Shown here one piece after another: positions 6,058 through 64,000 of a stretch of 64,000 nt of DNA; the first letter of the stretch is position 1; the number at the start of each line of letters is the position of its first letter. The notes beneath the pieces were generated by a model. That model did not search any database and had not been told where the DNA came from. It saw only the letters and a list, made by a program, of their open reading frames with translations. This DNA is from an uncultured Curvibacter sp. (lineage in GTDB: Bacteria; Pseudomonadota; Gammaproteobacteria; Burkholderiales; Burkholderiaceae_C). The DNA lies in the NCBI GenBank assembly GCA_903834975.1, contig CAILKX010000092.1:2384-66383 (forward strand), written 5' to 3'. The translations under genes and the position numbers were made by a program.

Positions 6058-6062
6058 GCCGC

Positions 6063-8234: not shown

Positions 8235-8256
8235 TCATCAAACTGGAACTGTCGTC

Positions 8257-22776: not shown

Positions 22777-22799
22777 CCAGACATGAATTGATAATCGCG

Positions 22800-23159: not shown

Positions 23160-23232
23160 ACCCGCCTCATGGCTTTCGACGACATTCCATTCATCCCAGA
23201 TTTAATCAGATTCAATTTCAGGAACGGGCACC

Positions 23233-23712: not shown

Positions 23713-23743
23713 TGGTGCTTCAGGACTCAACCAGGACTCAAGC

Positions 23744-24349: not shown

Positions 24350-24350
24350 C

Positions 24351-25604: not shown

Positions 25605-26089
25605 TCACCGAAGCCACCCGCGCTCGCTTTGAGCGCGAAATTGCCAAGTACCCGGCCGATCAAAAACAGTCTGCCGTCATGGCCTGTTTGTCGATTGTTC
25701 AGCAAGAACAGGGCTGGGTCAGTGAAGAAAGTGAAGCCGTGATTGCTTCGATTTTGGGCATGCCCGAAATCGCGGTGCACGAAGTCACCACTTTCTACAA
25801 CATGTACAACCAAAAGCCTTTGGGCAAGTTCAAACTGAACGTGTGCACCAACTTGCCCTGCCAATTGCGAGACGGCAGCAAGGCCTTGCAGCATTTGGCG
25901 CAAAAACTGGGCATTGAAATGGGCCAAACGACGCCCGACGGCTTGTTCACTTTGCAGCAATCCGAGTGCTTGGGGGCCTGCGCCGATTCACCCGTGATGT
26001 TGGTGAATGACCGCCACATGTGCAGCTTCATGAGCAATGAAAAGCTCGATCAATTGGTCGACGGCCTGCGCGCCTCGGTCAGCAAATAA
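25601..26089 (+). CDS. nuoE: NADH-quinone oxidoreductase subunit E
   Basis: CTNLPC and ECLGAC [2Fe-2S] ligands. Confidence 0.96.
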
Positions 26090-26102
26090 GGGGCGGACAG
26101 AC

Positions 26103-27464: not shown

Positions 27465-27495
27465 CCCCTTGACCTCTTGAACCCTGAGAATACCT

Positions 27496-29610: not shown

Positions 29611-30689
29611 TTGACGCGCTGTACAACGCGGGCTTGCACGCCTGCGATTCGAGCTGGTGGGCCACCTTGGTTTGGCCGGTGCTGTGGATTCTCATCAAAA
29701 TCGTGGCGGTGTTGCTGCCCTTGATGGGGGCGGTGGCTTACCTCACCTTGTGGGAGCGCAAACTGTTGGGCTTCATGCAAGTGCGCTTTGGCCCCAACCG
29801 CGTCGGCCCTTTTGGTTTGTTGCAACCCATAGCCGACGCCTTGAAGCTGCTCACCAAAGAGTTGATCAACCCTTCAGCCGCTAATTTGGGTCTGTTCCGC
29901 TTGGGTCCCATCATGGCCATCATGCCCGCGCTGGCGGCCTGGGTGGCCATTCCTTTTGGCCCCGATGTGGTTTTGACGAACATCAACGCGGGCGTGTTGT
30001 TGGTCATGGCGATCACTTCGATTGAGGTTTATGGCGTCATCATCGCGGGTTGGTCATCCAACTCACGCTACCCCTTCTTGGGGGCCTTGCGTGCATCCGC
30101 CCAAATGGTCAGCTACGAAATCGCCATGGGCTTTTGCTTCTTGGTGGTCATCATGGTCTCGGGCAGCATGAACTTGACGGCCATCGTGGCCGGCCAAACC
30201 AAGGGCACGATGGCGGCCATGGGCCTGAACTTCTTGTCATGGAACTGGTTGCCTTTGTTCCCGATTTTCATGGTGTACCTGATTTCCGCAGTGGCCGAAA
30301 CCAATCGCCACCCCTTCGACGTGGTCGAAGGCGAAGCTGAAATCGTCGCCGGACACATGGTGGAATATTCCGGCATGGGCTTTGCCATCTTCTTCCTGGC
30401 TGAATACGCCAGCATGTGGTTGGTGTCGCTGTTGGCGGTCTTGATGTTTTTGGGCGGCTGGGCTTCGCCGCTCGACAACGCCCTGTTCAACGCCGTACCC
30501 GGTTGGATTTGGTTGGGCATCAAAACCTTCTTGGTGGTCTCGATGTTCATCTGGATTCGCGCCACTTTCCCTCGCTATCGCTATGACCAGATCATGCGTT
30601 TGGGCTGGAAAATCTTCATTCCACTGACGCTGTTCTGGTTGTTGGTGGTCGGTTTCTGGATGCAGACTTCTTGGAACATTTGGAATTGA
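29607..30689 (+). CDS. nuoH: NADH-quinone oxidoreductase subunit H
   Basis: [36 protein letters not shown]. Confidence 0.97.
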
Positions 30690-30690
30690 T

Positions 30691-31200
30691 ATGAACACCG
30701 CCGTCGTTGCCCCGTTTTCTCTCAAGGACTTCTTGAAAAGCTTCATGCTTTACGAGTTGTTCAAAGGCATGGCCTTGACCGGTAGCTATACCTTCAAGCG
30801 CAAGTTCACGATCCAGTTCCCTGAAGAAAAAACACCGCTGTCGCCGCGCTTCCGTGGCCTGCATGCGCTTCGTCGATACGAAAATGGCGAAGAGCGTTGC
30901 ATCGCCTGCAAATTGTGCGAAGCGGTTTGTCCCGCGATGGCCATCACCATCGAATCGGAAGTGCGCGAGGACGGATCGCGCCGCACCAAGCGCTACGACA
31001 TCGACTTGACCAAATGCATTTACTGCGGCTTCTGCGAAGAAAGCTGCCCAGTGGATTCCATTGTTGAAACCTCGATCTTTGAGTACGTCGGCGAAAAGCG
31101 GGGCGACCTGTACTTCACCAAAGAAATGCTCTTGGCCGTCGGTGACCGCTACGAGCCCGAAATTGCTGCGGCCAAGGCGGCTGACGCCCCTTACCGCTAA
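30691..31200 (+). CDS. nuoI: NADH-quinone oxidoreductase subunit I
   Basis: Two CxxCxxCxxxCP ferredoxin motifs. Confidence 0.97.
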
Positions 31201-31227
31201 CCGCAGATCGATTGGAAAGACTAGTCT

Positions 31228-31884
31228 ATGGACGCCAAAACAGGTTTCTTCTACCTCTTCTCGCTGGTGCTGCTGTTTGCTGCCTTTCGGGTGGTGACCG
31301 CACGCAACCCCGTGCACGCGGTGCTTTATTTGATGCTTGCTTTTTCGCAGGCTTCGGCCGTTTGGTTCTTGCTGAACGCCGAATTCTTGGCCATCACCTT
31401 GGTGCTGGTTTACTTGGGCGCCGTGATGGTGCTGTTCTTGTTCGTGGTGATGATGCTCGACATCGACATTGAAAAAATCCGCCATGGTTTTTGGAAGAAC
31501 TTCCCGCTCGCGGCCCTCATGGGTTGCGTGGTGGCCTTGGAAATGGCGGGTGTTTTGTTGGGCGGTTTCCGCATCTCTGACACCCCGGAACTGCCCGCGG
31601 CCGCCGAAGCGGTTCAAGCCGGTGTGCAGTACTCCAACACCCAGGTTTTGGGTAAATTGCTTTACACCGAGTACCTGTACCCCATTGAAATTGCCGCCGT
31701 CATTTTGCTGGTGGCCATGATTGCCGCCATTGCGCTGACTTTGCGTGGTCGCAAAGACAGCAAGGCCATTTCAGCCAGCGAAGCGGTTCGAGTCCGACCT
31801 GCTGATCGCTTGGTGATGGTGTCGGTCCCCGTGACGCAAAAAGCGGTGGCACCGGTGGTCGCCACCGAGGAGGAAAAAGCATGA
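31228..31884 (+). CDS. nuoJ: NADH-quinone oxidoreductase subunit J
   Basis: [23 protein letters not shown]. Confidence 0.96.
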
Positions 31885-32189
31885 CTTTGACTTTGGGCCA
31901 TTACCTCTCGCTGGGTGCGATTTTGTTCGCGCTGTCAGTCATTGGCATCTTCATGAACCGCAAAAACTTGATCGTCTTGTTGATGGCCATTGAGTTGATG
32001 CTGCTCTCCGTCAACATGAACTTTGTGGCGTTCTCACGCTACTTGGGTGACATGCACGGGCAGGTCTTTGTGTTCTTTATTTTGACGGTGGCAGCCGCTG
32101 AATCGGCCATTGGTTTGGCCATTTTGGTGCTGCTGTTCCGCAACCGCTCGACCATCGAAGTCGATCAACTCCACTCGCTCAAAGGCTAA
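31881..32189 (+). CDS. nuoK: NADH-quinone oxidoreductase subunit K
   Basis: [19 protein letters not shown]. Confidence 0.97.
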
Positions 32190-32214
32190 GCCGAGACCAA
32201 CCCGAGATATGACC

Positions 32215-34239
32215 ATGAGCGCAACGCTTTCTGCTCCTTTGTTGCTGGCTGTGCCCCTCGCGCCTTTGGCGGGATCGGCGCTGGCTGGTATTTTTGGTAC
32301 CCGCTTCGGCGGTAACTTGATGGGTCGACTGGCCAGTCAAACACTGACCATTCTGGGCGTCTTCATTGCCTTTGTGTTGTCGGCCCTCACTTTGAGTGAC
32401 GTCATCGCGGGCGCCACTTTCAACGAAACCCTCTACACTTGGATGAATGTCGGCGGCTTGAAGATGGAAGTCGGCTTCTTGATCGACAGCCTGACCGCCA
32501 TGATGATGGTGGTGGTGACCTTTGTCTCCTTGATGGTCCACATCTACACCATCGGCTACATGCAGGAAGACGAAGGCTACGACCGCTTCTTCTCTTACAT
32601 CTCGTTGTTCACCTTCGCCATGCTGATGCTGGTCATGAGCAACAACCTGCTGCAACTGTTCTTCGGCTGGGAAGGCGTGGGCCTGGTTTCTTACTTGTTG
32701 ATTGGTTTCTACTTCAACCGGCCCACAGCGGTGTTTGCCAACATGAAGGCCTTCTTGGTGAACCGCGTGGGCGACTTTGGCTTCATCTTGGGCATTGGCC
32801 TCATTGCCGCTTACACCGGCTCCTTGAACTACACCGAAATTTTTGCCAAAGCCCCCGAGTTGGCGAATTTGTTGTTGCCTGGCACTTCTTGGTTGCTGGT
32901 CACGGTCATCGCGATTTGCTTGTTTGTCGGTGCCATGGGCAAGAGCGCGCAATTCCCGTTGCACGTTTGGTTGCCTGATTCGATGGAAGGCCCGACGCCC
33001 ATCTCCGCTTTAATTCACGCGGCGACGATGGTGACAGCCGGTATCTTCATGGTCAGCCGCATGTCGCCGATTTTCGAAATGAGCGACACCGCCTTGAATT
33101 TGGTCATGACGCTGGGCGCCATCACCGCCTTGTTCATGGGCTTTTTGGGCATCATTCAAAACGACATCAAACGCGTCATTGCTTACTCGACTTTGTCGCA
33201 ATTGGGCTACATGACCGTGGCTTTGGGCGCATCGGCCTACAGCGTCGGCGTCTTCCACTTGATGACCCACGCCTTCTTCAAAGCCTTGCTGTTCTTGGGC
33301 GCGGGTTCGGTCATCATGGGCATGCACCACAACCAAGACATCCGTTGGATGGGGGGCGTGCGCAAGTACATGCCCATCACTTGGATCACTTTCTTGCTGG
33401 GCAACTTGGCCTTGATCGGCACGCCGTTTTTCTCTGGCTTTTACTCCAAAGACAGCATCATTGAGGCCGTCGCTGAAAGCCATTTGCCCGCGTCGGGTTT
33501 CGCCTACTTTGCGGTCTTGGCGGGTGTGTTCGTGACGGCGTTTTATTCTTTCCGTCTGTACTTCTTGGTCTTCCATGGTCAAGCGCGTTACGACCAAAAC
33601 CCCGAGGCGCACCACGACGACCATGGCCACGACGACCATGCGCACCACGATGATTTCACGCCCCATGAATCACCCTGGGTCGTGACCTTGCCTCTGGTGC
33701 TGCTGGCCATTCCTTCGGTGCTCATTGGTTTTTACACCATCGAACCCATGCTGTTTGGGGGCTTCTTCAAGAACGTGATTTTCGTCAACAACGAAGCCCA
33801 CCCCGTGATGGAAGAGTTGGCGCACGGATTTGAAGGCCCCGTCAACATGGCCTTGCACGCTTTCACCAGCTTGCCTTTTGCTTTGGCCTTGGCCGGTGTG
33901 GCGTTGTCCTATTACATGTACATGGTCAATCCCGCGTTGCCCACGGCCATCAAACGCGTCTTCAACCCGATTTATGTGTTGCTTGAAAACAAGTATTTCT
34001 TGGACTGGTTCAACGAACACATTCTGGCCCGTGGCGCTCGCTTGCTGGGCAAAGAGTTGTGGGTGGTGGGCGATGAAACCATCATCGATGGCTGGATCGT
34101 GAATGGCTCCTGGAAAACGGTGGGCCGCGTCTCTGAGTGGGTGCGCGGTTTGCAATCGGGCTACATCTACAACTATGCGCTGATCATGCTCTTGGGTGTG
34201 TTTGGTTTGATGTCGTATTTTGTTTGGTTCAACAAGTAA
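32215..34239 (+). CDS. nuoL: NADH-quinone oxidoreductase subunit L
   Basis: GWEGVG, AFLVNRVGD, KSAQFPLHVWLPDSMEGPTP, HAFFKALLF. Start 32209 or 32215. Confidence 0.97.
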   Translation: MSATLSAPLLLAVPLAPLAGSALAGIFGTRFGGNLMGRLASQTLTILGVFIAFVLSALTLSDVIAGATFNETLYTWMNVGGLKMEVGFLIDSLTAMMMVVVTFVSLMVHIYTIGYMQEDEGYDRFFSYISLFTFAMLMLVMSNNLLQLFFGWEGVGLVSYLLIGFYFNRPTAVFANMKAFLVNRVGDFGFILGIGLIAAYTGSLNYTEIFAKAPELANLLLPGTSWLLVTVIAICLFVGAMGKSAQFPLHVWLPDSMEGPTPISALIHAATMVTAGIFMVSRMSPIFEMSDTALNLVMTLGAITALFMGFLGIIQNDIKRVIAYSTLSQLGYMTVALGASAYSVGVFHLMTHAFFKALLFLGAGSVIMGMHHNQDIRWMGGVRKYMPITWITFLLGNLALIGTPFFSGFYSKDSIIEAVAESHLPASGFAYFAVLAGVFVTAFYSFRLYFLVFHGQARYDQNPEAHHDDHGHDDHAHHDDFTPHESPWVVTLPLVLLAIPSVLIGFYTIEPMLFGGFFKNVIFVNNEAHPVMEELAHGFEGPVNMALHAFTSLPFALALAGVALSYYMYMVNPALPTAIKRVFNPIYVLLENKYFLDWFNEHILARGARLLGKELWVVGDETIIDGWIVNGSWKTVGRVSEWVRGLQSGYIYNYALIMLLGVFGLMSYFVWFNK

Positions 34240-34251
34240 GGGAAGAACGAA

Positions 34252-35733
34252 ATGGGCTTGTTGAGTCTTGCAATTTGGTTGCCAATCGCATTTGGCGTGG
34301 TCTTGTTGGCGTTCGGGCGCGATGCCCACGCCGATGCCGTTCGAAAGATCGCTTTCGTTGGCGCTTTGGCCAGTTTTCTGGTCACCATTCCGCTCTACAC
34401 CGGGTTTCACCTCGGCACCGCGGACATGCAATTTGTTGAAAACTTCAGCTGGATCGAGCGTTTCAATGTGAACTACCACATTGGCTTGGACGGCCTGTCT
34501 TTCTGGTTCGTGCCTTTGACGGCCTTCATTACCTTGATCGTGGTGATCTCGGCTTGGGAAGTCATCACCGAGCGCGTGAACCAATACATGGGTGCCTTCC
34601 TGATTTTGAGCGGTCTCATGATTGGGGTGTTTGCCGCTTTGGACGGCATGTTGTTTTATGTGTTTTTTGAAGCGACCTTGATCCCGATGTATTTGATCAT
34701 CGGCATTTGGGGCGGTCCGAACCGCATTTACGCCGCCTTCAAGTTCTTCTTGTACACCTTGCTCGGCTCCTTGCTGACCTTGATCGCGCTGATCTATTTG
34801 TACAGCGTGTCCAACGGCAGCTTTGAAATTTTAGAGTGGCACAAACTGCCCTTGAGCATGGGCGAGCAAACCGCTTTGTTCTTTGCCTTCTTGGCGGCTT
34901 TTGCGGTCAAGGTCCCGATGTGGCCGGTGCACACGTGGTTGCCCGACGTGCACGTCCAAGCGCCCACTGGCGGCTCGGCCGTGTTGGCGGCCATCATGCT
35001 GAAACTCGGTGCTTATGGCTTCTTGCGGTTCTCCCTGCCCATCGCACCCGATGCGGCCCACGCCTATGCCAGCTTGATGATTGGCCTGTCACTCGTGGCC
35101 GTGATTTATGTGGGCTTGGTGGCGATGGTTCAAACCGACATGAAGAAGCTGGTGGCTTACTCCTCAGTGGCGCACATGGGTTTTGTGACTTTGGGCTTTT
35201 TCCTCTTCAACGACTTGGGCGTTGAAGGCGGCCTCGTTCAAATGATTGCCCACGGCTTTGTGTCCGGTGCCATGTTCTTGTCCATCGGTGTTTTGTACGA
35301 CCGTGTTCACTCGCGTGACATTGCGGCCTACGGCGGCGTGGTCAACACCATGCCCAAGTTTGCGGCCTTGGCGGTTTTGTTCGCGATGGCCAACTGCGGG
35401 CTGCCCGGAACCGCCGGTTTTGTTGGCGAGTGGATGGTGATTCTGGGCGCGGTTCAGGCCAACTTCTGGTTGGGTTTTGGCGCCGCCACAGCCCTGATTT
35501 TTGGCGCTGCCTACACCTTGTGGATGGTCAAGCGCGTTTACTTTGGCCCCATGACCAATGACCACGTGCGTGAATTGAGTGACATTGGCCTTCGTGAATT
35601 CATGATGCTGGGTTTGCTGGCTGTGGCGGTTTTGGCCATGGGCATTGACCCCAAACCCTTCACCGATGTGATGGATGCCTCGGTCACCGAGTTGCTGAAA
35701 CACGTTGCGGTTTCCAAATTGTCTTTGAATTGA
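34252..35733 (+). CDS. nuoM: NADH-quinone oxidoreductase subunit M
   Basis: FFEATLIP, KVPMWPVHTWLP, KKLVAYSSVAH. Confidence 0.97.
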   Translation: MGLLSLAIWLPIAFGVVLLAFGRDAHADAVRKIAFVGALASFLVTIPLYTGFHLGTADMQFVENFSWIERFNVNYHIGLDGLSFWFVPLTAFITLIVVISAWEVITERVNQYMGAFLILSGLMIGVFAALDGMLFYVFFEATLIPMYLIIGIWGGPNRIYAAFKFFLYTLLGSLLTLIALIYLYSVSNGSFEILEWHKLPLSMGEQTALFFAFLAAFAVKVPMWPVHTWLPDVHVQAPTGGSAVLAAIMLKLGAYGFLRFSLPIAPDAAHAYASLMIGLSLVAVIYVGLVAMVQTDMKKLVAYSSVAHMGFVTLGFFLFNDLGVEGGLVQMIAHGFVSGAMFLSIGVLYDRVHSRDIAAYGGVVNTMPKFAALAVLFAMANCGLPGTAGFVGEWMVILGAVQANFWLGFGAATALIFGAAYTLWMVKRVYFGPMTNDHVRELSDIGLREFMMLGLLAVAVLAMGIDPKPFTDVMDASVTELLKHVAVSKLSLN

Positions 35734-35757
35734 CCCGCCTGACCAGAGAGAAACAAG

Positions 35758-37245
35758 ATGATTGACCAACTCAGCTGGATCGCGATTTATCCGGAAATTT
35801 TGTTGCTGGTGATGGCTTGCGTCATTGCCCTTTGGGACCTGGGAGTGATGTCGCCTCGCCGGGGCCTCACCTTCGCCCTGACCTTGGTGACCTTGGTCGT
35901 GGTAGCCGGCATGGAGATGTTGTACGCCACGGGTGAGCTCTCCATTTACGGCTTCAACGGCCTGGTCGTGAGTGACCCCTTGGGCAACTGGCTCAAGTGC
36001 TTTGCCGCCATCGCCACGGCCGTGACCTTGGTTTATGCCCGACCTTATTCTGCCGACCGCGGCATGCTGCGCGGGGGTGAGTTATTCACCCTCAGCCTGT
36101 TTGCCTTGCTCGGCATGTTTGTGATGATCTCGGGCAACAACTTCTTGATCATTTATTTGGGTCTGGAATTGCTCACCCTTTCGAGCTACGCGTTGGTGGC
36201 CTTGCGCCGTGACAATGGCATCGCCACGGAAGCGGCCATCAAGTACTTTGTGTTGGGCGCGATGGCCAGCGGCTTCTTGCTGTATGGCATGTCGATGCTA
36301 TACGGAGCCACCGGCTCATTGGATCTGGGCAATGTGTTCAAGGCGGTATCAACCGGTCAAGTGAACCACCAAGTCCTGATTTTTGGTTTGGTTTTTGTGG
36401 TCTCCGGTTTGGGCTTCAAGCTCGGCGTCGTGCCTTTCCACTTGTGGGTTCCCGATGTTTACCAAGGCGCCCCTACCTCCGTCACCTTGATGTTGGCGGG
36501 TGCCCCCAAATTCGCTGCCTTTGCGATCGTCATCCGTCTCTTGGTGGAAGGCCTCTTGCCCTTGGCCATCGATTGGCAACAAATGTTGACGGTGTTGTCG
36601 GTGGGCTCCTTGCTCATCGGCAGTTTGGGTGGCGTGATGCAAAAGAACGTCAAGCGCATGCTGGCCTACTCGACCATCTCGCAGATGGGTTTTGTGCTGC
36701 TGGGTTTGATTCCTGGTGTGGTGGAGGGTTCTACTTTGCCCGCGGCCAACGGCTACAGCTCGGCTTTGTTCTACGTCGTGACCTATGTGCTGACGACACT
36801 CGCCACCTTCGGTGTTTTGTTGGTCTTGGCCCGAGACGGCTTTGAGAGTGAAGAAATCTCTGACTTGGCTGGCTTGAACCAACGCAGTCCGCTCTACGCG
36901 GGCATCTTGTCTCTGTGCTTGTTCTCGCTGGCGGGCATCCCTCCCTTGGTGGGCTTCTATGCCAAGCTGTCGGTCTTGCAAGCCCTGATCACCACGGGCG
37001 TGAATGGTTACCTGGCTTTGGCGGTTTACGCCGTGGTCATGTCCCTGATCGGTGCTTTCTATTATTTGCGTGTCGTCAAGGTGATGTACTTTGACGAACC
37101 CATCACCGCCTCCACGGTTTCAGCCCCCAAAGACGTGCGCGTGGTGCTGGGCGTGAATGCCTTGTTGCTTTTGGTGGTTGGCTTGTTCCCAGGCGGTTTG
37201 ATGGCTTTGTGCGCCAAAGCCATCGTGCTGACTTTAGGGGCTTGA
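35758..37245 (+). CDS. nuoN: NADH-quinone oxidoreductase subunit N
   Basis: GLELL, EAAIKY, FKLGVVPFHLWVPD, KRMLAYS. Confidence 0.97.
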   Translation: MIDQLSWIAIYPEILLLVMACVIALWDLGVMSPRRGLTFALTLVTLVVVAGMEMLYATGELSIYGFNGLVVSDPLGNWLKCFAAIATAVTLVYARPYSADRGMLRGGELFTLSLFALLGMFVMISGNNFLIIYLGLELLTLSSYALVALRRDNGIATEAAIKYFVLGAMASGFLLYGMSMLYGATGSLDLGNVFKAVSTGQVNHQVLIFGLVFVVSGLGFKLGVVPFHLWVPDVYQGAPTSVTLMLAGAPKFAAFAIVIRLLVEGLLPLAIDWQQMLTVLSVGSLLIGSLGGVMQKNVKRMLAYSTISQMGFVLLGLIPGVVEGSTLPAANGYSSALFYVVTYVLTTLATFGVLLVLARDGFESEEISDLAGLNQRSPLYAGILSLCLFSLAGIPPLVGFYAKLSVLQALITTGVNGYLALAVYAVVMSLIGAFYYLRVVKVMYFDEPITASTVSAPKDVRVVLGVNALLLLVVGLFPGGLMALCAKAIVLTLGA

Positions 37246-49713: not shown

Positions 49714-50706
49714 TTAAGCCGAGCCCCAATCATCGGCCAAGGCCAATAATTGGGGCAGGGCGTTGGGCCCGTCGCAAGCAATCACCTGTCGCTCTGGCAT
49801 GCTGCGCAGCCAGGTGATTTGTCTTTTGGCCAATTGGCGTGTGGCAAAAATACCCTTGTCTCTCAGGTCTTTCCGGTCAACGGGCTGGCCTGAGCGCTCA
49901 CTCAAATCCAAGGCTTCCCAAGCTTGTCGGTAGCCCACACAGCGCATGGCGGGCAGGTCGGGATTCAAGTCGCCTCGGGCCCGCAATGCTTGGACCTCCT
50001 GCAAAAAATTTTGAGCCAACATGGCGTCAAATCGTTGTGCAATCCGATCGTGTAACCACTGTCGATTTTGTGGCTCTAAACTCAAAAGACGCAAAGGCAC
50101 GGGGGGCGTGGTCGTACCAGGATGGGCGTGCCAATCGGTGAGTGTTCTGCCCGAAATTCGGTAGACCTCCAAGGCGCGCTGCAAGCGCTGTGAATCGTTG
50201 GGGGCCAGGCGTTTGGCGCTGTCGGGGTCCACCTGCACCAGCGCCGCGTGAATGGCTGGCCACCCCTCCAGGCGGGCCTGGGCCTCAATGTCGGCGCGCA
50301 CTTGTGCATCGGCCGGCGGCATTGGGGCCAGGCCTTGTTGCAAGGCTTTTAAGTACAGCATGGTGCCCCCGACCAAGAGCGGCACTGCACCCCGGCCCCG
50401 AACATCTTCAATCAACACCGAGGCATCTTGCACAAATTCGGCAGCGCTGTAGGTTTGCGAGGGGTCGCGAATGTCAATCAAATGATGGCGCACTTGGGCC
50501 AATTCGCTGGCGCTGGGTTTGGCCGTGCCAATGTCCATGCCGCGGTAAACCAAGGCGGAGTCGACGCTGATGACCTCGACCTTTTGGGGGCCGTTGCCGG
50601 CGTGGCCATGCCGAGTTCGGCCTGTTGACAAGTGTTCGGCCAATGCCAATGCCGCTGCGGTTTTGCCACTGGCGGTCGGGCCGACCAAGGCCCAAACGGG
50701 ATTCAA
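49714..50706 (-). CDS. miaA: tRNA dimethylallyltransferase
   Basis: [45 protein letters not shown] start overlaps the P450 stop. Confidence 0.96.
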
Positions 50707-52709
50707 GTGGCAGCCCCTTCAACGGGTGCAGGGCTGGTTTGAATGACCCGGTCGAGCGACGCCAAAGCGGGCCACAGCCCTGGCAACCAGGCTTCAAAAT
50801 CAGCCACCAAGTCGACATTGGCATCTGCTTCCCCGCGTGCCAGAAGTCGGGTGGCCCCTGCTTGCGAGAGGGCTTGATCGATGTGGGTCGGCACCGCTTG
50901 GTATGTGCGCGCCCACTGTCGGTTGCCACAGCCCATCACCGCGTAGTGCAAGCCCTTCAGGCTGTCCTCACTTTGCAAGGAGAGCCAATCCATGAATTCT
51001 TTGGCGTTGTCGGTGGGCTGGCCTTCATAGGAGGCCGTGACGATGATGACGGGTTGATTCGCTGCTTGAGGCGGTCCATCAAAGGCCCAATCGACGCTGG
51101 CCTCGTCCAGAGTGCGGACTTGGGTGGAATGGCCGCGGGCCAAGGCTTGGCTCGCAATTTGTTCGGCAAACGCTTTGCAAGAACCGGCGTTAGAACCATA
51201 CAAAACCGTTAACGAAGCACGAAGGGAAAGGGATTGCCCTTCGGTGGGCGTTTCTGCTGCGGGGTTTGCAGCGCTGGTGGGGCGGCCCTGTGTCGCGTTC
51301 CCCTGTGTCGCGTTCACTTGATGGGTGGGTCTGGCTTTGGCCCGAATCATCAGGCCCGTGGGCTTGAGCGTCAGGGTTTCGGCCACTTCGAGTTGGTAAT
51401 TGGGATCGACCGCTTCGATGTCAAACTGCTGAATCATTTTGGCCAACACCAACGTCGCTTCTTGCAAGGCGAAGGGGCGGCCAATGCAGGCGCGGGCGCC
51501 GTTGCCAAAAGGCTTCCAAGCGTTGGGCGGGATCTTTTTCATCCCCACGGGCGTAAAACGCTCGGGCTTGAAGCTCAGCACGTCGTCGCCCCAGGCCTTC
51601 GGATCTCGGTGCAAGCTGGGCAGCAGGACGAAGATCACGTCATCGGGTTCCAAGGCATAGCGCCCCCCCAAGCGGGTCGGGGTTTCTGTTTTTAAGGTGT
51701 AAGCGGGTGCCGTGGGCCACAGACGCAGCGTTTCAAACAGCACTTGCTCGGTGTAACGCAGTTGCGCCAAATGGCCAACCTGCAAAGGCTGGTCGCCCAC
51801 CACCGAGTCAATTTCGGCGCGCAGCTTGGCCATCACCTCCGGGTGCTTCAACAGCAAGTGGGTGGCGAACGAAAGCAAACCGCTGGTGGTTTCGTGGCCA
51901 GCGATCAAGAAGGTCACCATTTGGTAGCCCACGTTTTCATCGCTCAAACGCTCGCCCGTGACGCTGTCGATGCCCTGCAACATCAAGTCGAGCAGGTCTT
52001 TGGATTCGGCATTGGGCTGTTGGCGGCGCTCGTTCACCAATTGCTCGGAGATCTTTTTCAGGAAGGCAATGTCTTTGGCAAATTGCTTTTTCTGTTTGAC
52101 CATGAGTTTGTTGACCAAAGGCAGGCGCCGGCTCATGGCGCCAGACTCACTCAAGGCGCCCACCATGGCGTCTACAAAAGGGTGTAACTCCGGTTGGTAA
52201 AAGCTGTTGAAGCGGTAGTTGAAGCCGCACAAGGCAATGGTGTCCAAGGTCAGCCGGGTCATGTTGTCGGCCACATCGATCACGGCTTGGTCGCCAAAGC
52301 GCCGCCACTTGGTGAACATTTGGTCGGCGATGTCGGTCATGCCATCGAACATTTGGCGCACGCCCAAAGGACCAAAAGCAGGCATCAACAAGCGGTGGGC
52401 TTTGCCCCAGTTGGGCTCGTCGTTGTAGGCTGTGAAAAGACCGTCCCCTGCCAAGGCGCGGATGTTTTTGAGCGCCATGCTCAAGCGCTTGCTGAAGCGA
52501 CTGTCATCACTGAGCTCATTCACGAGTTCCTGCGAGCTCACCATGACCAAACGCCGACCCATGATTTCAAGCTGGTAGATGGGGCCCAATTGCGCCGCCA
52601 GCCGCATGAAGCCTTGAATCGGTTGATGGGGGTCAATTTGGTTCAGATGCCCGAACAACAGGCCAGCTTCAGGCTGGGGAATCGGAATCAGCGCAGGCGT
52701 GTTGGACAT
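50703..52709 (-). CDS. CYP102/BM3-like cytochrome P450 fused to an FMN (flavodoxin) domain; no FAD/NADPH domain
   Basis: [25 protein letters not shown] and [10 protein letters not shown] (Cys408); then [18 protein letters not shown] and GCGNRQW FMN motifs; ends at 668 aa. Confidence 0.92.
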
Positions 52710-52752
52710 GGTGTACTTTGGAAAAAATAAAGGGAACTGTGAAAAATGACTT

Positions 52753-52788
52753 GAATGAGGAATGAGGAATGAGGAATGAGGAATGAGG
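52753..52788. repeat. Heptanucleotide microsatellite (GAATGAG)x5
   Basis: Five perfect copies at 52753-52787, 44-78 nt upstream of the P450 start on the minus strand. Confidence 0.95.
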
Positions 52789-52818
52789 TGGGCTATTTTG
52801 TTTTTTAACGGTTTGAAG

Positions 52819-52858
52819 GCGCTATCCGGCGGTATCCGGCGCTATCCGTCGCTATCGC
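52819..52858. repeat. Imperfect 10-bp tandem repeat over the mutL stop
   Basis: GCGCTATCCG GCGGTATCCG GCGCTATCCG TCGCTATCGC. Confidence 0.85.
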
Positions 52859-54897
52859 CCGCGCATAAAGAAGGCATCCAAATCGCGCAATGAGAGTTGT
52901 CGCCAGGTCGGGCGACCATGGTTGCATTGGTCGGCACGTTCGGTGGCTTCCATTTGGCGCAACAGGGCATTCATTTCGTCCAAGGTCAAACGCCGGTTGG
53001 CCCGCACAGCGCCGTGGCAGGCCATGGTCGCCAAGAGTTCATTTTGGGCCCGCTCCAGCACCGGGTTTGACGCGCCAGTGGACGTTTCAGTGGTCAGATC
53101 GATTTCGGCCAAGTCAGCCAGCACGTGGCGTGCCAAAGCCACGGGATCGCCCTGTGCCAAGGGGGTCGGTACCGCCCGCACCGCCAGTGTTTGGGGCGAA
53201 AAAGGCAGCACTTCCAAACCCAGTTGAGACAAGGTGGCGGCATGGGCTTCGGCCGTACTGACCTCGATGGGGGTGGCGGCAAAAGTGGCTGGAATCAGCA
53301 AGGGTTGGCTGCTCAAGCGCATGGGGGGGTGGCGCTGGGGTTCGACGCCGCTGGAGACCTCGACCGGCGCTGACGCTGCTGATTGAAACTGCACTTTGAG
53401 GCGTTCATAAACAATCCGCTCATGGGCGGCGTGCATGTCCACAATCACCAAGCCCAGGGCATTTTCAGCCAATACATAAACGCCTTGAATTTGCGCAATG
53501 GCGCGCCCCAAAGGCCATTCGTCCTGCGTTTCGGGCAAGGGCTCGAAGGCACGGCTCGGGTGCCACAATGCCCCCAACTCCTTGACCTCGTGGCCAACTG
53601 AACCAGCAGGGTCATATGAACCCAATGAACCATATGAAACCGATGAACCCGATGTAGGCAAAGGCGGGGGCGCCTGAAACAAACCGGGGCTTTGACGCCA
53701 AGAGGGGGGCGCTCCCAAGCCAGATCCGATGGCGTCCATGCGCGATCCGTCTCCCATTTCATGGGGCGTCGGCGCGGGGGGTGTGGATGTGGGGTTCGTG
53801 CGTGGAATGGCCAACGCGTTTTCGACGGCATGGCGAATGGCTTGGTGCACTTCTCGACCGTCTCGAAAGCGCACTTCAATTTTGGTGGGGTGCACATTCA
53901 CATCCACCCGTTGAGGATCGATGGTCAGGTAGACCGCATAAACGGGCTGGCGCTGGCCATGCAAGACGTCTTCATAGGCGCTGCGTGCGGCGTGGTTGAT
54001 GACTTTGTCTTTGACAAACCGTCCGTTCACATACGCAAACTGCTGGTCGGCGCGTGAGCGGGCTGCGTCGGGAATACCGGCCCGCCCCACCACGCTGATC
54101 GCGCCGCTCTGGCTCAGATATTCCACCTTCACCGAGGACGCTAAAAAACCATCTCCCAACACATCGGCCAGGCGCCGATCTAAGGAATCCTCGCCGCTGT
54201 AAGCGCGCCATTGTTCAACCAATTTGCCTTCGTGCCAAATGGCAAAACCCACCTTGGGTCGACTCAAAGCGTGGCGACGCACCGCCTCGATGCAATGGGC
54301 CAATTCGGTGGCGTCGGTCTTCAAAAATTTACGCCTTGCGGGGGTCGAAAAAAACAGCTCTTTCACCTCGACCGTGGTACCCACGCTGCGCGCGGCGGGC
54401 TTGATCTCGCCGGTGCGGGCGTCCAACAGAAAACCGTGTTCTTGGTGGGCTGTGCGCGACAACAGCGACAACTCCGAAACCGAGGCCACGGCGGCCAGCG
54501 CTTCGCCCCGAAAACCCATGGTCGAGACGGTTTCTAAATCATGCAGATTTTGAATCTTGCTGGTGGCGTGGCGCTTCAGGGCGATTGGCAGCTCGTGGCT
54601 GGGGATGCCGGTGCCGTCGTCCTCGACTGCAATCAAACGCACCCCGCCGGCCAGCAACCGCACGGTGATTTGCGTGGCACCCGCGTCCAGCGCGTTGTCC
54701 ACCAGCTCGCGCACCACCGAAGCGGGGCGCTCCACCACTTCGCCAGCCGCGATCTGGCTGATTAATTCGTCGGGCAACTCGCGAATTTGGCGACGTTCCG
54801 CCGTGGACCCCAGCGGGGATGCCGCCCCAGCAGAGCCCGTCATGGGGGCCGTGGGACTTGAATGTTGACTTGGATATTGACTTGGACTTGGATTCAC
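52852..54897 (-). CDS. mutL: DNA mismatch repair endonuclease MutL
   Basis: IAAGEVVERP, ELVDNALDAGA, GFRGEAL, DMHAAHERI, ACHGA, CNHGRPT. GTG start 54897 preferred. Confidence 0.97.
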   Translation of the reverse strand: MNPSPSQYPSQHSSPTAPMTGSAGAASPLGSTAERRQIRELPDELISQIAAGEVVERPASVVRELVDNALDAGATQITVRLLAGGVRLIAVEDDGTGIPSHELPIALKRHATSKIQNLHDLETVSTMGFRGEALAAVASVSELSLLSRTAHQEHGFLLDARTGEIKPAARSVGTTVEVKELFFSTPARRKFLKTDATELAHCIEAVRRHALSRPKVGFAIWHEGKLVEQWRAYSGEDSLDRRLADVLGDGFLASSVKVEYLSQSGAISVVGRAGIPDAARSRADQQFAYVNGRFVKDKVINHAARSAYEDVLHGQRQPVYAVYLTIDPQRVDVNVHPTKIEVRFRDGREVHQAIRHAVENALAIPRTNPTSTPPAPTPHEMGDGSRMDAIGSGLGAPPSWRQSPGLFQAPPPLPTSGSSVSYGSLGSYDPAGSVGHEVKELGALWHPSRAFEPLPETQDEWPLGRAIAQIQGVYVLAENALGLVIVDMHAAHERIVYERLKVQFQSAASAPVEVSSGVEPQRHPPMRLSSQPLLIPATFAATPIEVSTAEAHAATLSQLGLEVLPFSPQTLAVRAVPTPLAQGDPVALARHVLADLAEIDLTTETSTGASNPVLERAQNELLATMACHGAVRANRRLTLDEMNALLRQMEATERADQCNHGRPTWRQLSLRDLDAFFMRGR

Positions 54898-54938
54898 CAA
54901 AGCATTTTAATGAGCAGGGGCTGGGATAATCTGTCGCC

Positions 54939-55589: not shown

Positions 55590-55659
55590 CTTTGGGGTAT
55601 TCCCTGTGGCTTGAAGCGCGTTTGGGTTCTAGAGTGGCCTCTACAACATGAGACATTCA

Positions 55660-56994
55660 ATGACCAAAAGAAACCTTTCTCTCTCCCCGTTGCTGGTGGC
55701 CGCCTCCTTGTGCTGGTCTGCACCCGCCATCACAAACGCCCAAACCCCGGCGCCACCCACCTTGCCCACCGCAGAGCAAACCGACCCCGTCAAACTGGGT
55801 TGGATGATGGGCTCGCCCCCGCCGCCCGACAAAGTGATTCGCTGGGCCGACGGCTCCTTCTACACTTTTCCTAAGTTTCGTTGGACCTTCTCACATGGCC
55901 GGGAGTTGGGTCCGACCAGCAATGTGTCTCGTGGGCTAGGAGCCCCTTCGTTGTTGCCCCGCGCAGAACGTCAAGACCTGGACGCCGTCACGTTTGTGCC
56001 ACTCGGCAAAACCGAACCCATGACTTGGGCGCAGTCCTTGTCGGCCAATTACACCGACGGCATTGTGGTGCTGCACAAAGGCAAAATTGTTTATGAGCGT
56101 TACTTCGGCGCCTTGCGGCCGAATGGCCAACACGCGGGTCAGTCGGTTACCAAGTCGTTTTTTGGGACGATCGGCGCGATGTTGGTCGCTGAAGGTCAAC
56201 TGGACCCCAACGCCAAAGTCGAGCAATACATTCCTGAGCTCAAAGACAGCGGCTTTGGCAGCGCCACCGTTCGCCAAGTGTTGGACATGACCACCAGCAT
56301 CAAGTACAGCGAAAACTACGCCGACCCGAAGGCTGAAATTTGGGACCATGTCCGAGCGGGCAATGTGTTGCCGCGCCCACCGGGTTATCAAGGCCCCAAG
56401 TCCTTTTACGACTTCCTGAAAACGGTGGGTCCTGAGGGAGAGCATGGCCAAGCCTTTGCCTATAAAACAGTCAACAGCGATGTGCTGGGGTGGCTGATTC
56501 GGCGCGTCACCAACAAGTCGGTGGGTGAGAATTTATCCGAGCGCATTTGGTCGAAGTTGGGCATGGAACAAGACGCCTACATTGCGATTGACACCGAGGG
56601 CACCGAATTCGCTGGGGGCGGCCTGTACACCGGCCTGCGTGATCTGGCGCGTTTTGGTGAAATGATGCGCAACGACGGTCAATTCAACGGCCAACAAGTG
56701 GTGCCCAAGGCCGTCGTCGACGATGTTCGCCAAGGCGGTGACAAGCAACACTTTGCCAAGGCCGGCTACGCCACTTTGCCCGGTGGCAGCTACCGCAATA
56801 TGTGGTGGAAATTGAACAACGCCGACGGCGCTTATTCGGCGCGTGGCATCCACGGGCAGGCCCTTTACATCGACCCCAAAGCTGAAATGGTGATTGCCCG
56901 CTACGCCTCATTCCCCATGGCGGCGAATGCGTTCAACGACCCCACTTCGTTGCCAGCCTATCAGGCCCTGGCGGACAAGTTGATGGGCAAGTGA
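55660..56994 (+). CDS. Secreted serine hydrolase, beta-lactamase class C/NylB-like
   Basis: Signal peptide; SVTK (SxxK), FAYKT.NSDVLG, LRDLARFG and GIHGQ..YIDP motifs. Confidence 0.85.
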   Translation: MTKRNLSLSPLLVAASLCWSAPAITNAQTPAPPTLPTAEQTDPVKLGWMMGSPPPPDKVIRWADGSFYTFPKFRWTFSHGRELGPTSNVSRGLGAPSLLPRAERQDLDAVTFVPLGKTEPMTWAQSLSANYTDGIVVLHKGKIVYERYFGALRPNGQHAGQSVTKSFFGTIGAMLVAEGQLDPNAKVEQYIPELKDSGFGSATVRQVLDMTTSIKYSENYADPKAEIWDHVRAGNVLPRPPGYQGPKSFYDFLKTVGPEGEHGQAFAYKTVNSDVLGWLIRRVTNKSVGENLSERIWSKLGMEQDAYIAIDTEGTEFAGGGLYTGLRDLARFGEMMRNDGQFNGQQVVPKAVVDDVRQGGDKQHFAKAGYATLPGGSYRNMWWKLNNADGAYSARGIHGQALYIDPKAEMVIARYASFPMAANAFNDPTSLPAYQALADKLMGK

Positions 56995-57041
56995 GCCGCT
57001 AAAGGGCGGTTCCGTGTTCGTCTTCGGGTTCGGGTTCGGGC

Positions 57042-58436
57042 CTAAATGGCCCGGTTTCGTGCCAACGGCGGGTTTTTAGAAAAATAACGCTCGATGCCGC
57101 GCATCACGGCATCGACGAGTTGGTTTTGGTAATCCGAACTGCGCAGTCGCTGCTCTTCCTCTGGGTTGCTGATGAAGGCGGTTTCTAGCAAGACACTCGG
57201 AATGTCGGGGGCTTTGAGCACCGCAAAGGCCGCTTGCTCCACTTGCCCTTTGTGCAGCTTGGCGACCGCACCCACTTCGCTGAGCAAGGCGTTGCCCAGC
57301 TTCAGGCTGTCTTTGATTTGGGCGCTGGTGCTCATGTCGAGCAAGGCCATTCGCAAGCTGGCGTCCTGCACTTTGAAGTTCAGCCCGCCGACGGCGTCGG
57401 CGCGATTTTCTTTATCGGCCATCCAGCGTGCCGCCACGCTCGATGCACCGTGTTCGCTCAAAGCAAAAACGCTGGCGCCACGCGCCGTGGGCGTCATGAA
57501 AGCATCGGCGTGGAGGCTGATCATCAGGTCTGCCTGGACTTGTTGGGCTTTCAAAACGCGCACGCCCAAGGGAACAAAGAAGTCGGCGTCGCGTGTCAGG
57601 TAGGCCCGCAATGGGTTGCCGTTGACGTTGGCGGCGTTGATGCGTTCGCGCAGCAATTGGGCAATGCTCAAGACAATGTCTTTTTCCTTCGTGCCATTGG
57701 GTCCGATGGCGCCGGGGTCCTCTCCGCCGTGGCCGGGGTCCAGGGCAATCACGATCAGGCGAGAAGCCGCCATCTTGGGCTCTCCCACGGCGCTGGGAGG
57801 GCTTTGGACTTTGTTCTGCTCACTTCGCTCGGCCGTTGGGGGCGCGTTGAGGGTGTTGGGTTTGACCTTGGGCGTGCTTTGCTGTGACAACCAATGGTCC
57901 AGGGCATCGTCAGGCGCGTGTTTGTTTTGGGCCCGTGCTCTTTCTTGTAGGAAGGCCTCCAGCGGGTCAATCGGGTGGCTGGGATACAAGTCGAGCAACA
58001 AGCGATTTTGGTAATTGGCCACAGGCGGCAGGTTGAATACCTGAGGCAAGATTTCTTGCTTCAAATCCAACACCAGACGCACCACCCCGGGGGCAAATTG
58101 GCCCACCCGGATCCCGGCGATGTAGGGGTCGTCGGTTTTCACCTGAGCCACCAACGACTTTAGTTCGGGGCTGAGTTCAAGGCCTTCAATGTCCACCGCC
58201 AAGCGGGGTGGGTTGTTGATCAAGGTTTGTTGGGTCGGTAGCTTGGCATCCGACTCGATGGTGACGCGTGTGTAGTCGGCAGCAGGCCAGACCCGGACCG
58301 CCAAAATGGTGGCCCCCCAAACGATTTGTGGCCATCCCACGCTGAGCACCAAGCCCCCCCGTTTCAAGAGTTCACGGCGGCTCAAACTGGCTTTGCCGCT
58401 GCTTTTCAGATCGCTTGAAGGATCAGCAAGCATCAT
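57042..58436 (-). CDS. amiC: N-acetylmuramoyl-L-alanine amidase with AMIN domain
   Basis: Tat signal SRRELL; VRVWPAADYTRVTIE AMIN domain; DPGHGGEDPGA, SLHADA, LETAFISN. Confidence 0.93.
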   Translation of the reverse strand: MMLADPSSDLKSSGKASLSRRELLKRGGLVLSVGWPQIVWGATILAVRVWPAADYTRVTIESDAKLPTQQTLINNPPRLAVDIEGLELSPELKSLVAQVKTDDPYIAGIRVGQFAPGVVRLVLDLKQEILPQVFNLPPVANYQNRLLLDLYPSHPIDPLEAFLQERARAQNKHAPDDALDHWLSQQSTPKVKPNTLNAPPTAERSEQNKVQSPPSAVGEPKMAASRLIVIALDPGHGGEDPGAIGPNGTKEKDIVLSIAQLLRERINAANVNGNPLRAYLTRDADFFVPLGVRVLKAQQVQADLMISLHADAFMTPTARGASVFALSEHGASSVAARWMADKENRADAVGGLNFKVQDASLRMALLDMSTSAQIKDSLKLGNALLSEVGAVAKLHKGQVEQAAFAVLKAPDIPSVLLETAFISNPEEEQRLRSSDYQNQLVDAVMRGIERYFSKNPPLARNRAI

Positions 58437-62269: not shown

Positions 62270-63166
62270 ATGAATCCCCCGCCCGAACTAGACGCTTTTA
62301 TTGAAGCCCTTTGGCTGGAGGAGGGCTTGTCGGCCAACACCCAAGCGGCTTACAGAAAAGACCTGACCCTGTTTTCTGAGTGGCTCGCCCCCCAAGGGGT
62401 GGCCCTTTTACAGGCCAATGAAATGCACATCCAAGCCTACTTTGCCGAACGCCATGCCCTTACCCGGACCGCCACAGCCAACCGTCGTTTGTCGGCTTTC
62501 AAGCGGTTTTTTCGGTGGGCCTTGCGCGAACAAGCCACAACCGGCTTGCGAGCCGACCCCACCGCCCGCTTGAGTGCTGCCAGGGCTTCCTTGCGCTCGG
62601 TGCACAGTTTGAATGAGGCCCAGGTCGAAGCCTTGTTGGCCGCTCCCCGCTTGGAAGACCCCTTGGGCTTGCGCGACCGGGCCATGTTGGAATTGCTCTA
62701 CGCCAGTGGTCTGCGTGTGTCTGAGTTGGTGGGGTTGCGCTTGTTTGAATTGGGTCTGAACGAAGGGGTTTTGCGTGTGGTGGGCAAAGGCCAAAAAGAA
62801 CGCTTGGTGCCCTTTGGCGATGTGGCGCGTGACTGGCTGAGCCGCTACTTGAACGAGGCACGACCGATCATTTTGGCGGGCCAAGTCTCAGATGATTTGT
62901 TTGTGACCCAGCGTGGCGCGCGCATGACGCGCCACATGTTTTGGGTCATTGTGAAGAAAAACGCTTTGATCGCGGGCATTCAAGCGCATTTGTCGCCCCA
63001 CACCTTGCGCCATGCCTTTGCCACCCACTTGATTAACCACGGCGCAGACCTGCGCGCGGTTCAGTTGTTGCTGGGTCACGCCGACATTTCAACGACGACC
63101 CTTTACACCCACGTGGCGCGTGAGCGTTTGCGCGCCTTGCATGCGCAGCACCATCCTCGGGGATAG
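62270..63166 (+). CDS. xerD: Site-specific tyrosine recombinase XerD
   Basis: LEEGLSANT, RDRAMLELLYASGLRVSEL, GKGQKERLVP, HTLRHAFATHL, LLGHADISTT..YTH. Confidence 0.95.
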   Translation: MNPPPELDAFIEALWLEEGLSANTQAAYRKDLTLFSEWLAPQGVALLQANEMHIQAYFAERHALTRTATANRRLSAFKRFFRWALREQATTGLRADPTARLSAARASLRSVHSLNEAQVEALLAAPRLEDPLGLRDRAMLELLYASGLRVSELVGLRLFELGLNEGVLRVVGKGQKERLVPFGDVARDWLSRYLNEARPIILAGQVSDDLFVTQRGARMTRHMFWVIVKKNALIAGIQAHLSPHTLRHAFATHLINHGADLRAVQLLLGHADISTTTLYTHVARERLRALHAQHHPRG

Positions 63167-63177
63167 ACCGGTTGCTC

Positions 63178-64000
63178 TCAGGCTTGGGCGTCCAACCACG
63201 CCATTTCGGCTTCGCTAAAGCCAGCGTCAAAGCGGGCCGTGCGGTTAAAGGGCGGCTTCATTCGGGGTGCTTCGTGGCGCTGGGTCAACACGGCGTAGTG
63301 CGCCACGGGGTCCAGTCCTTCGCGCTCGCAAGTCCAGGCGTACCAACGGTTGCCAATCGCCACATGGCCGATTTCGTCGCGCAAAATAATGTCCAAAATG
63401 CCACAGGCGGCCAAGGCATCGGCCGTTCCAATTTGGCGCAGCTTGGCTTGAATCAACGGCGTGGCATCCAAGCCCCTTGCTTCCATGGTGCGGGGCACCA
63501 AGGCCATCCGGGCCACCACGTCTTGTGACGTGCGTTCGCACATCTGCCACAAGCCGCCGTGCGCCGGAAAGTCCCCATAGTCCCAGCCTTGCGGCGGCAC
63601 GTCTTCGGCGCTCGGTGCCAAGCGGTGCATGGATTGCAAATGGGCACGCAACAAACTGAAATGCAGGGCTTCCTCCACCGCGACTTGGAGCCAATCGACG
63701 TAATAGCGGCGCGGCATGTTCGCAAAGCGCCAAATGGCATCCAACGCCAAGTTGACGGCGTTGAATTCGATGTGGGCAATGGCGTGGATCAAGGCGGCAC
63801 GACCCACCCAGGTTTTGGGGGACCGGCGCGCCACTTGGGTGTGGTTCACCCAGGTGGGTCGCTCGGGTCGCGCAGGCAGGATGACCCCTTGGGGGGCGCT
63901 CAGCTCGGCTTGCGGATCGACCTCGATTTCGAACCCGATCAAGGCGTCCTTCATCGCCAGCGTGTGGGCGATTTTGTCGTCCAAATGCGGCAGGCACAAA
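63178..64000 (-). CDS. DUF455 ferritin-like di-iron protein, 5'-truncated by window edge
   Basis: HAIAHIEFNA, EEALHF, EARGLDA, DEIGHV motifs. Confidence 0.85.
   Translation of the reverse strand, partial: LCLPHLDDKIAHTLAMKDALIGFEIEVDPQAELSAPQGVILPARPERPTWVNHTQVARRSPKTWVGRAALIHAIAHIEFNAVNLALDAIWRFANMPRRYYVDWLQVAVEEALHFSLLRAHLQSMHRLAPSAEDVPPQGWDYGDFPAHGGLWQMCERTSQDVVARMALVPRTMEARGLDATPLIQAKLRQIGTADALAACGILDIILRDEIGHVAIGNRWYAWTCEREGLDPVAHYAVLTQRHEAPRMKPPFNRTARFDAGFSEAEMAWLDAQA

Follow-up and report, generated by a model that had tools for sequence, protein, structure and literature searches.

Cytochrome P450 BM3 (CYP102A1) is the standard example of what a P450 gains from fusion to a complete reductase, whose flavin mononucleotide (FMN) and flavin adenine dinucleotide (FAD)/NADPH domains follow the heme domain on the same chain. 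The structure PDB 1BVY comes from a truncation of BM3 to its heme and FMN domains (PMC7261786). XplA (CYP177A1) of Rhodococcus is a flavodoxin-fused P450 served by a separate reductase, XplB (PMC8081977), and CYP102B1 of Streptomyces coelicolor and CYP102H1 of Nocardia farcinica are CYP102s in which heme and reductase domains are not fused (PMC9728198). In the literature searched (full text; subscription-only papers lay outside the scope) there is no description of a natural CYP102 made up of heme and FMN domains only. Such a protein, of 668 amino acids (aa), is encoded at positions 50703–52709 (minus strand) of the DNA analysed here, a 64-kb stretch of contig CAILKX010000092.1 from an uncultured Curvibacter sp., which as a whole we call the window. 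In our judgement it is probably a functional two-domain flavocytochrome, a CYP102 descendant without the FAD/NADPH part that acts as an O2-dependent monooxygenase and is reduced in trans.

The initial annotation of this DNA had read the gene as an intact open reading frame (ORF) with a CYP102 heme domain and a BM3-type FMN domain, and the ORF list, Pfam and PDB comparisons agree. The ORF starts with ATG and is uninterrupted, with no stop inside; together with the AlphaFold2 (AF2) model described below, these sources mark the gene as a complete two-domain CYP102-like P450–FMN gene. Pfam places p450 at aa 11–451 (E = 5e-85) and Flavodoxin_1 at aa 502–641 (E = 1.6e-25), and reports no further domain of note in the 668-aa protein, with no match to FAD_binding_1 or NAD_binding_1 (PF00667 and PF00175). 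The best PDB matches are full-length CYP102s including BM3; the query aligns from aa 10 to ∼647–651, and these alignments span just the first ∼615–640 residues of chains of ∼1035–1067 aa. BM3 heme domains are matched with phmmer E values of ∼1e-131, and over ∼452 aligned residues the P450 domain is 47–48% identical to them. Membership in CYP102 rests on >40% aa identity of the P450 domain to members of the family. By its sequence the window protein is a CYP102-family member, with identity above this level and with the family's Cys loop and acid–alcohol pair in place.

The heme domain (aa 1–460; 51330–52709, minus strand), delimited by Pfam, PDB matches and Foldseek, carries the motifs GDGLFT (88–93), AGHETT (270–275) and FGNGARAC (401–408), and the Cys-ligand loop pattern FxxGxRxCxG is matched at aa 401–410. 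The residues kept are F92 (BM3 F87), the acid–alcohol pair E273/T274, F401 and the ligand Cys408 (codon at 51486–51488), so that the equivalents of the catalytic BM3 residues F87, E267/T268, F393 and C400 are the same in both proteins. BM3 R47 and Y51 align to R52 and M56, as an earlier alignment by eye had it. The flavodoxin-like FMN domain (aa 498–658; 50736–51218, minus strand), supported by Pfam, the motif check and the strands and helices of the model, has its three FMN-binding loops intact: YGSNAGS at 504–510 (motif YGSN, 504–507), a loop at 560–569 (overlapping motif ASYEG, 559–563) and GCGNRQW at 593–599 (motif GCGN..W). These FMN motifs were checked directly, and numbered FMN alignment rows were dropped; BM3 numbering of this domain by way of PDB 8dmg proved unreliable, its 1037-aa chain appearing shorter, probably in the linker, than wild-type BM3, whose length we take to be 1049 aa. 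In the alignment and the direct check, every motif named in the initial annotation sits at the residue given there.

Between the domains lies a low-complexity linker (aa 461–497; 51219–51329, minus strand), predicted to be disordered from the model and fast-evolving by ortholog comparison. Reading the sequence places within it the perfect 15-bp tandem duplication GAACGCGACACAGGG x2 (NATQG x2; 51286–51315, minus strand), exactly where it had been reported; the duplication is confined to the sublineage of the window and occurs neither in the 663-aa orthologs (L086 and cluster members, see below) nor in those of 653 aa. By motif check and model, a short C-terminal tail (aa 659–668, with the TGA stop; 50703–50735, minus strand) closes the protein, which thus terminates a few residues past the last FMN-domain helix.

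The AF2 model, made from a 52-sequence alignment, has a mean predicted local distance difference test score (pLDDT) of 86.4 and a predicted template modelling score (pTM) of 0.83, with confident P450 and flavodoxin folds. The linker is disordered in it (pLDDT <50 at aa 465–486), and the FMN region consists of alternating strands and helices ending in a long terminal helix (634–658) and a short floppy tail. CYP102A1 holds the top Foldseek rank, and the modelled heme domain superposes on that of BM3 with a template modelling score (TM) of 0.95 and a root-mean-square deviation of 1.7–2.0 Å at 47–48% identity.

Full-length CYP102s (BM3 and betaproteobacterial proteins of ∼1060 aa) share with the window protein the catalytic residues, the type of FMN domain, the domain order and the loops. 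Compared with BM3, the window protein is without the ∼400-aa ferredoxin-reductase-like FAD/NADPH part; compared with BM3-type CYP102s generally, its linker is longer and fast-evolving, and its FMN domain is longer by 7 aa. Because the whole FAD/NADPH part (∼400 aa) is absent, the protein is not self-sufficient, and NADPH would not be expected to drive turnover unless redox proteins are added: the C-terminal FMN domain of the self-sufficient class, in which a P450 is fused to a cytochrome P450 reductase (CPR), is present, but the fused FAD/NADPH domain that defines the class is not. Sources naming these proteins use ‘cytochrome P450/NADPH-cytochrome P450 reductase’, a label that wrongly implies self-sufficiency. 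The engineered BM3 truncation of PDB 1BVY matches the window protein in its two domains and their order and stops at practically the same boundary, but it is a laboratory construct without a physiological donor, whereas the window protein is the product of a natural gene, fixed in its clade and under purifying selection. In XplA the flavodoxin is N-terminal; in the window protein it is C-terminal and BM3-derived, the Glu–Thr pair is kept and the P450 family differs. Because domain order and P450 family differ, the window protein is, judged by sequence, not of the XplA type. The XplA/XplB pair would still be the best functional analogy for its probable working, with the difference that no reductase gene lies in the window or in the flanks of related loci. 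CYP102B1 and CYP102H1 likewise are not self-sufficient, but they lack both flavin domains, whereas the window protein keeps FMN; its architecture is intermediate between heme-only and full-length CYP102s.

We searched for the missing part outside the ORF with a profile hidden Markov model (HMM) of the last ∼410 residues, made from 115 full-length homologs. No reading frame of the window, nor any of the orthologous loci L001 and L003, gave a match (best E >1), and loci L083–L087 likewise held no remnant by this HMM; with the P0065 locus as positive control, the HMM scores 573 bits on the real FAD/NADPH domain in L002. Pfam scans of 40 other ORFs of the window revealed no reductase of the ferredoxin/flavodoxin-NADP+ reductase (Fpr/FNR) or CPR type. 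Those ORFs are ordinary chromosomal genes, among them pnp, tpiA, secG, queG and nuo genes and others for liv-type ABC transporters, aldehyde and alcohol dehydrogenases, efflux components, a catechol dioxygenase, an amidase and a XerD-like recombinase. An HI0933-like flavoprotein (11499–12776) and the nuo genes were considered as donors and rejected, not being of FNR/CPR type. Pfam, HMM and ORF survey thus uphold the two negative statements of the initial annotation, that the protein has no FAD/NADPH domain and the window no partner reductase.

A search of 5.8 billion proteins returned just two high-identity clusters with the two-domain architecture, P0001 (99% identity, 668 aa) and P0002 (77–78% identity, 653 aa). 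All other matches listed are ≤59% identical to the window protein (closest full-length relatives, 54–59%), and they are proteins of ∼1045–1100 aa with FAD_binding_1 and NAD_binding_1, bar three shorter entries, of which one is a frameshift piece and two are partial or short-contig entries. By exact-sequence look-up the first cluster has 26 members, all of 668 or 663 aa save for one of 586 aa from a 2-kb contig, and the second has 11, mostly of 653 aa with a few shorter fragments. Members come from NCBI, ENA, JGI and Logan assemblies of many samples, on contigs of up to 867 kb, and ∼20 metagenome runs from ponds, lakes and fresh water contain the window sequence. The P0002 gene was located on a metagenomic contig of 613 kb, where the gene order reads mutL-cyp-miaA-liv permeases. 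The orthologs at L001 and L003 (653 aa, 78% identical) terminate at the same point and likewise stand in the order mutL-cyp-miaA, and the GTDB representative metagenome-assembled genome (MAG) ‘uncultured Curvibacter sp.’ carries a P0002-type gene whose DNA is 98.9% identical to L001. A search with MiaA brought a third sublineage, L086/L087, whose P450 of 663 aa is 95% identical and stands in the same gene order. Homologs with the heme+FMN-only architecture, which the initial annotation had proposed to seek, therefore do occur in a freshwater Comamonadaceae clade.

Selection was gauged from the ratio of nonsynonymous to synonymous divergence (dN/dS; Nei–Gojobori estimates) of the window against L001 and L086, respectively. 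The values are 0.086 and 0.086 for the heme domain, 0.184 and 0.14 for the FMN domain, 0.142 and 0.188 for miaA, and 0.100 and 0.163 for mutL; L086 against L001 is comparable, giving overall ranges of 0.086–0.10 (heme), 0.14–0.18 (FMN), 0.13–0.19 (miaA) and 0.09–0.16 (mutL). Since these values match, both domains are under constraint like that on mutL and miaA. The linker alone evolves freely, while both domains are as constrained as the housekeeping neighbours: against L001 it is 31% identical with dN/dS ∼1.4, over only 29 aligned codons. Synonymous divergence (dS) between the window and L001 is ∼1.10–1.14 and equal across mutL, cyp and miaA, and the sublineages are separated by dS of ∼0.17 and ∼1.1; the three genes diverged together, and the truncation is older than the split of the sublineages. 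The GC content at third codon positions of the P450 gene (0.71) is like that of its neighbours. Parts of the gene are covered by contigs from four freshwater metatranscriptome runs, and some of these contigs match it without a mismatch, which is weak evidence, compatible with expression.

These data bear directly on whether the gene is a decaying remnant, that is, a recent deletion allele under relaxed selection or the product of mis-assembly or a frameshift at ∼50700. Such a reading could point to the full-length state of every homolog below 60% identity and to the existence of artefactual ‘two-domain’ database entries (P0065 and P0138), but it is refuted by the data and we hold it to be improbable in the extreme: three sublineages at dS ∼0.17 and ∼1.1 share the end point and the downstream miaA, dN/dS of 0.09–0.18 is the same as in the neighbouring housekeeping genes, nothing of a FAD domain remains past the stop codon, and the 37 cluster members stem from many independent assemblies, with ∼20 metagenome runs besides. 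An assembly join at ∼50700, which the initial annotation had named as a possible flaw, is excluded because many independent assemblies and metagenome runs carry the same sequence, and the unique recent deletion under relaxed selection that it had also envisaged is excluded by the three sublineages and their dN/dS of 0.09–0.18. Its proposal of a maintained architecture is supported by synteny and a common gene boundary in three sublineages, by strong purifying selection on both domains and by the many independent assemblies.

The two-domain form arose by loss of the FAD/NADPH part, since relatives below 60% identity are full-length (∼1060 aa) and the clade nests among full-length proteobacterial CYP102s in a neighbour-joining (NJ) tree. 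This tree was rooted on full-length BM3 and used solely to infer derivation from full-length proteins; the sister of the clade in it (P0085, P0081 and P0089) is weakly resolved, possibly through a long-branch effect. A clade-specific 7-aa insertion, PPQAANQ (aa 546–552, placement ambiguous; 51054–51074, minus strand), was located by alignment between a helix and a strand of the FMN domain. It is shared by all three sublineages and is found neither in full-length relatives nor in other two-domain lineages. Outside the clade, the nearest MiaA relatives, including another Curvibacter MAG, are 65–67% identical. Two such loci (L088 and L089; interval ∼1180–6000) have no P450 between mutL and miaA and hold there gdhA, a ferredoxin, a beta-lactamase-like gene and an MFS transporter. 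Because they hold unrelated genes at this place, the classical mutL–miaA junction is a variable, insertion-tolerant site in these Comamonadaceae. The P450 gene is confined to one small freshwater clade of Curvibacter-like Comamonadaceae.

The architecture itself is not a one-off, as it had at first seemed. An exhaustive HMMER scan of 1.84 billion cluster representatives gave several CYP102-like proteins of ∼635–660 aa, and for four further lineages the DNA confirmed a complete gene with unrelated genes after it: P0154, present in two assemblies; P0155, adjoining a large polyketide synthase (PKS) gene; P0130, adjoining a divergent TetR regulator; and P0273/P0174, adjoining Fur and a TonB-dependent receptor. 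The other two-domain loci place the gene at 6001–7947 (L083/L084), 6001–7983 (L085), 808–2781 (L091), 3996–5942 (L092) and 930–2876 (L093), and the three loci of this set that were scanned, L083–L085, contain no FAD/NADPH remnant. In all four lineages AGHET(T/S), the Cys loop and the trio of FMN loops are preserved, and the proteins end right after the last FMN-domain helix. Because each is nearest to full-length proteins (48–51% identity) and not to another two-domain protein in the sampled set, domain loss has recurred independently, in at least four other lineages, and the heme+FMN pair appears to be a viable functional unit. In terms of gene content, the four contexts hold a type III PKS-like gene, a 2950-aa modular PKS, TetR, and Fur with a TonB-dependent receptor; such unrelated contexts suggest that the shared truncated architecture serves different physiological roles.

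Artefacts contribute to database counts of P450+flavodoxin architectures. P0065 (791 aa) and P0138 (641 aa), candidate two-domain forms, turned out to be pieces of frameshift-split full-length genes and were excluded. The apparent ‘split’ case at L002 (8001–11221), the P0065 locus, with its 791-aa P450 followed by a 282-aa FAD/NAD protein, is a frameshifted full-length CYP102 on a long-read contig of 3x coverage.

As to how the window protein might work, the CYP102 heme domain, flexible linker and cognate flavodoxin-like FMN domain would form an ordinary O2-dependent monooxygenase, probably for a fatty-acid-like or other amphipathic substrate. The FMN domain would hand single electrons to the heme, as in BM3, and would in turn receive electrons in trans from an NAD(P)H-dependent flavoprotein reductase with a gene of its own. 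As donor, the likeliest candidate would be a housekeeping reductase of the Fpr/FNR type encoded outside the 64-kb window; a dedicated stand-alone CPR-like FAD module is less likely in this role. Reduction of FMN in trans is proposed because there is no NADPH/FAD module in cis while the O2-activation and FMN-binding residues are kept, and the constraint on the FMN domain, together with the preserved acid–alcohol pair, Phe401 and Cys ligand, points to normal reductive O2 activation. The R47-equivalent Arg and the BM3-like channel suggest a fatty-acid-like amphiphile as substrate; channel residues that differ from close full-length relatives are S77, M78, L86 and F360. That electrons arrive in trans had already been put forward in the initial annotation: this much follows from the missing domain and the kept residues, but no donor was found in the window or in the flanks of related loci, and the step itself is one that we infer.

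A separate reductase could also be a relic of the same fusion. The FAD/NADPH module would then persist as a stand-alone CPR-like protein elsewhere in the genome and dock non-covalently on the FMN domain, for which the BM3/CPR type of this domain would be a natural fit and to which the 7-aa insertion and the FMN-domain substitutions could be adaptations. We regard a CYP102 split in this manner as unlikely: no such gene lies in the 64-kb window or within 6–10 kb of the five two-domain lineages examined, the sole adjacent ‘split’ case (L002) is the frameshifted gene described above, and isolated FAD and FMN domains reconstitute poorly (PMC3509625).

Further from the trans-reduced monooxygenase, the FMN might not relay NAD(P)H electrons at all, and the protein would depend on a peroxide shunt or a photoreduced flavin, serve in regulation, or pass electrons to another acceptor. 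The lack of a reductase in cis or nearby and the sunlit freshwater habitat fit this, and engineered BM3 heme–FMN constructs can be photoreduced in vitro. We nonetheless give it little credence, less than we give the split. The Glu–Thr pair, Phe401 and Cys loop are intact, as in all 115 full-length relatives; the FMN-binding loops, needless for a peroxygenase, are under purifying selection; and the Asp/Glu–Thr motif has been lost from XplA, a P450 whose speciality is reductive chemistry (PMC8081977). The peroxide-shunt and photoreduction ideas of the initial annotation found nothing in their support, the Glu–Thr pair and the FMN loops arguing for reductive O2 activation.

Several points weigh against a functional monooxygenase reduced in trans. 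Neither the window nor the flanks of any related locus contain a reductase partner. According to a review, electron transfer is poorly reconstituted by the separated FMN and FAD domains of diflavin reductases, to ∼2% for human CPR (PMC3509625), so that efficient electron supply to a BM3-type FMN domain by a free reductase is not guaranteed. In full-length BM3 the reductase part mediates dimerisation (PMC7261786), and loss of this part may change the organisation of FMN-to-heme transfer. At ∼40 positions conserved at ≥90% in the 115 full-length relatives the clade differs, several of them in the FMN domain; these substitutions could reflect adaptation to a new partner or a partly changed function. 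Finally, the RNA support is at contig level and of low depth, and carry-over of DNA is possible.

With BM3 as the example of fusion, the present proteins illustrate the reverse step in nature, in which the FAD/NADPH module has been lost and the FMN module kept, repeatedly and under selection. The implication is a heme–FMN unit able to plug into the general reductase pool of the cell. The protein is a natural version of the engineered heme–FMN construct that has been used for decades to study FMN-to-heme transfer, and, as a compact scaffold, it could lend itself to biocatalysis powered by inexpensive reductases, by electrodes or by light. It is of interest for the evolution of P450 redox partners and for biocatalysis, while being conceptually close to known systems and less singular than first assumed.

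The gene occupies a conserved arrangement with mutL upstream (52852–54900, minus strand; ORF as listed, its true start may lie further in) and miaA, for tRNA dimethylallyltransferase, downstream (49714–50706, minus strand), both identified from the ORF list and orthologous loci. A spacer of 142 bp (52710–52851) separates mutL from the P450 gene. At the other end, stop and start overlap in the 4-bp sequence TTGA (50703–50706, minus strand), with the TGA stop of the P450 gene at 50703–50705 and the TTG start of miaA at 50704–50706; the same 4-bp overlap with miaA occurs in L001 and in L086/L087, and bears out the initial observation that the protein ends where miaA begins. Judged by the sequence, such an overlap would permit translational coupling. 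A scan for promoters and terminators gave nothing above chance, and no terminator-like site lies between mutL, cyp and miaA.

This arrangement raises the thought that the P450 serves the MiaA pathway by hydroxylating an isopentenyl group, either on i6A37 of tRNA or on free isopentenyladenine, in the manner of MiaE or plant CYP735A; if true, it would be a bacterial heme-based counterpart of those enzymes. That its stop overlaps the start of miaA in each of the three sublineages, and that no terminator-like site separates the two genes, would agree with this. The idea seems very unlikely, however: mutL–miaA is a housekeeping operon of unrelated functions, the interval in the nearest P450-less relatives is insertion-tolerant and holds unrelated genes, the other two-domain lineages do not lie beside miaA, and the substrate-channel residues, including the R47-equivalent Arg, are typical of CYP102 fatty-acid hydroxylases. 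In a weaker version of it, heme–FMN CYP102s would be a recurrent natural class with a dedicated electron-donor system of their own.

Two metatranscriptome contigs differ from the window inside mutL, one skipping 140 bases (54009–54150) and another having a 6-base insertion (54105); they indicate length polymorphism in this part of mutL among related strains. At L001 (1–6722), a type I-F CRISPR-Cas module (a Cas3/Cas2 fusion and Csy1-3) lies ∼1.4 kb upstream of mutL, with a small ORF and a DedA-like gene in between; the counterpart of this region in the window holds a beta-lactamase-like gene and an AmiC-type amidase (55648–58436).

Elsewhere in the window, 14 co-oriented ORFs (22788–37245) resemble a nuoA-N operon for NADH dehydrogenase I, three of them confirmed by Pfam as the 49-kDa, 51-kDa and NuoG-like subunits. 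Towards its end, a gene for a XerC/D-type tyrosine recombinase (62270–63166, plus strand) adjoins one for a DUF455 protein (63178–63999, minus strand), the ORF of which as listed ends one base before the window edge. At the opposite end, a gene of the catechol 1,2-dioxygenase type (8203–9102, plus strand) lies downstream of a set of genes (619–7921) for an aldehyde dehydrogenase, an Fe-alcohol dehydrogenase and a liv-type ABC transporter, and together these genes may be a small island for the catabolism of aromatic compounds or alcohols.

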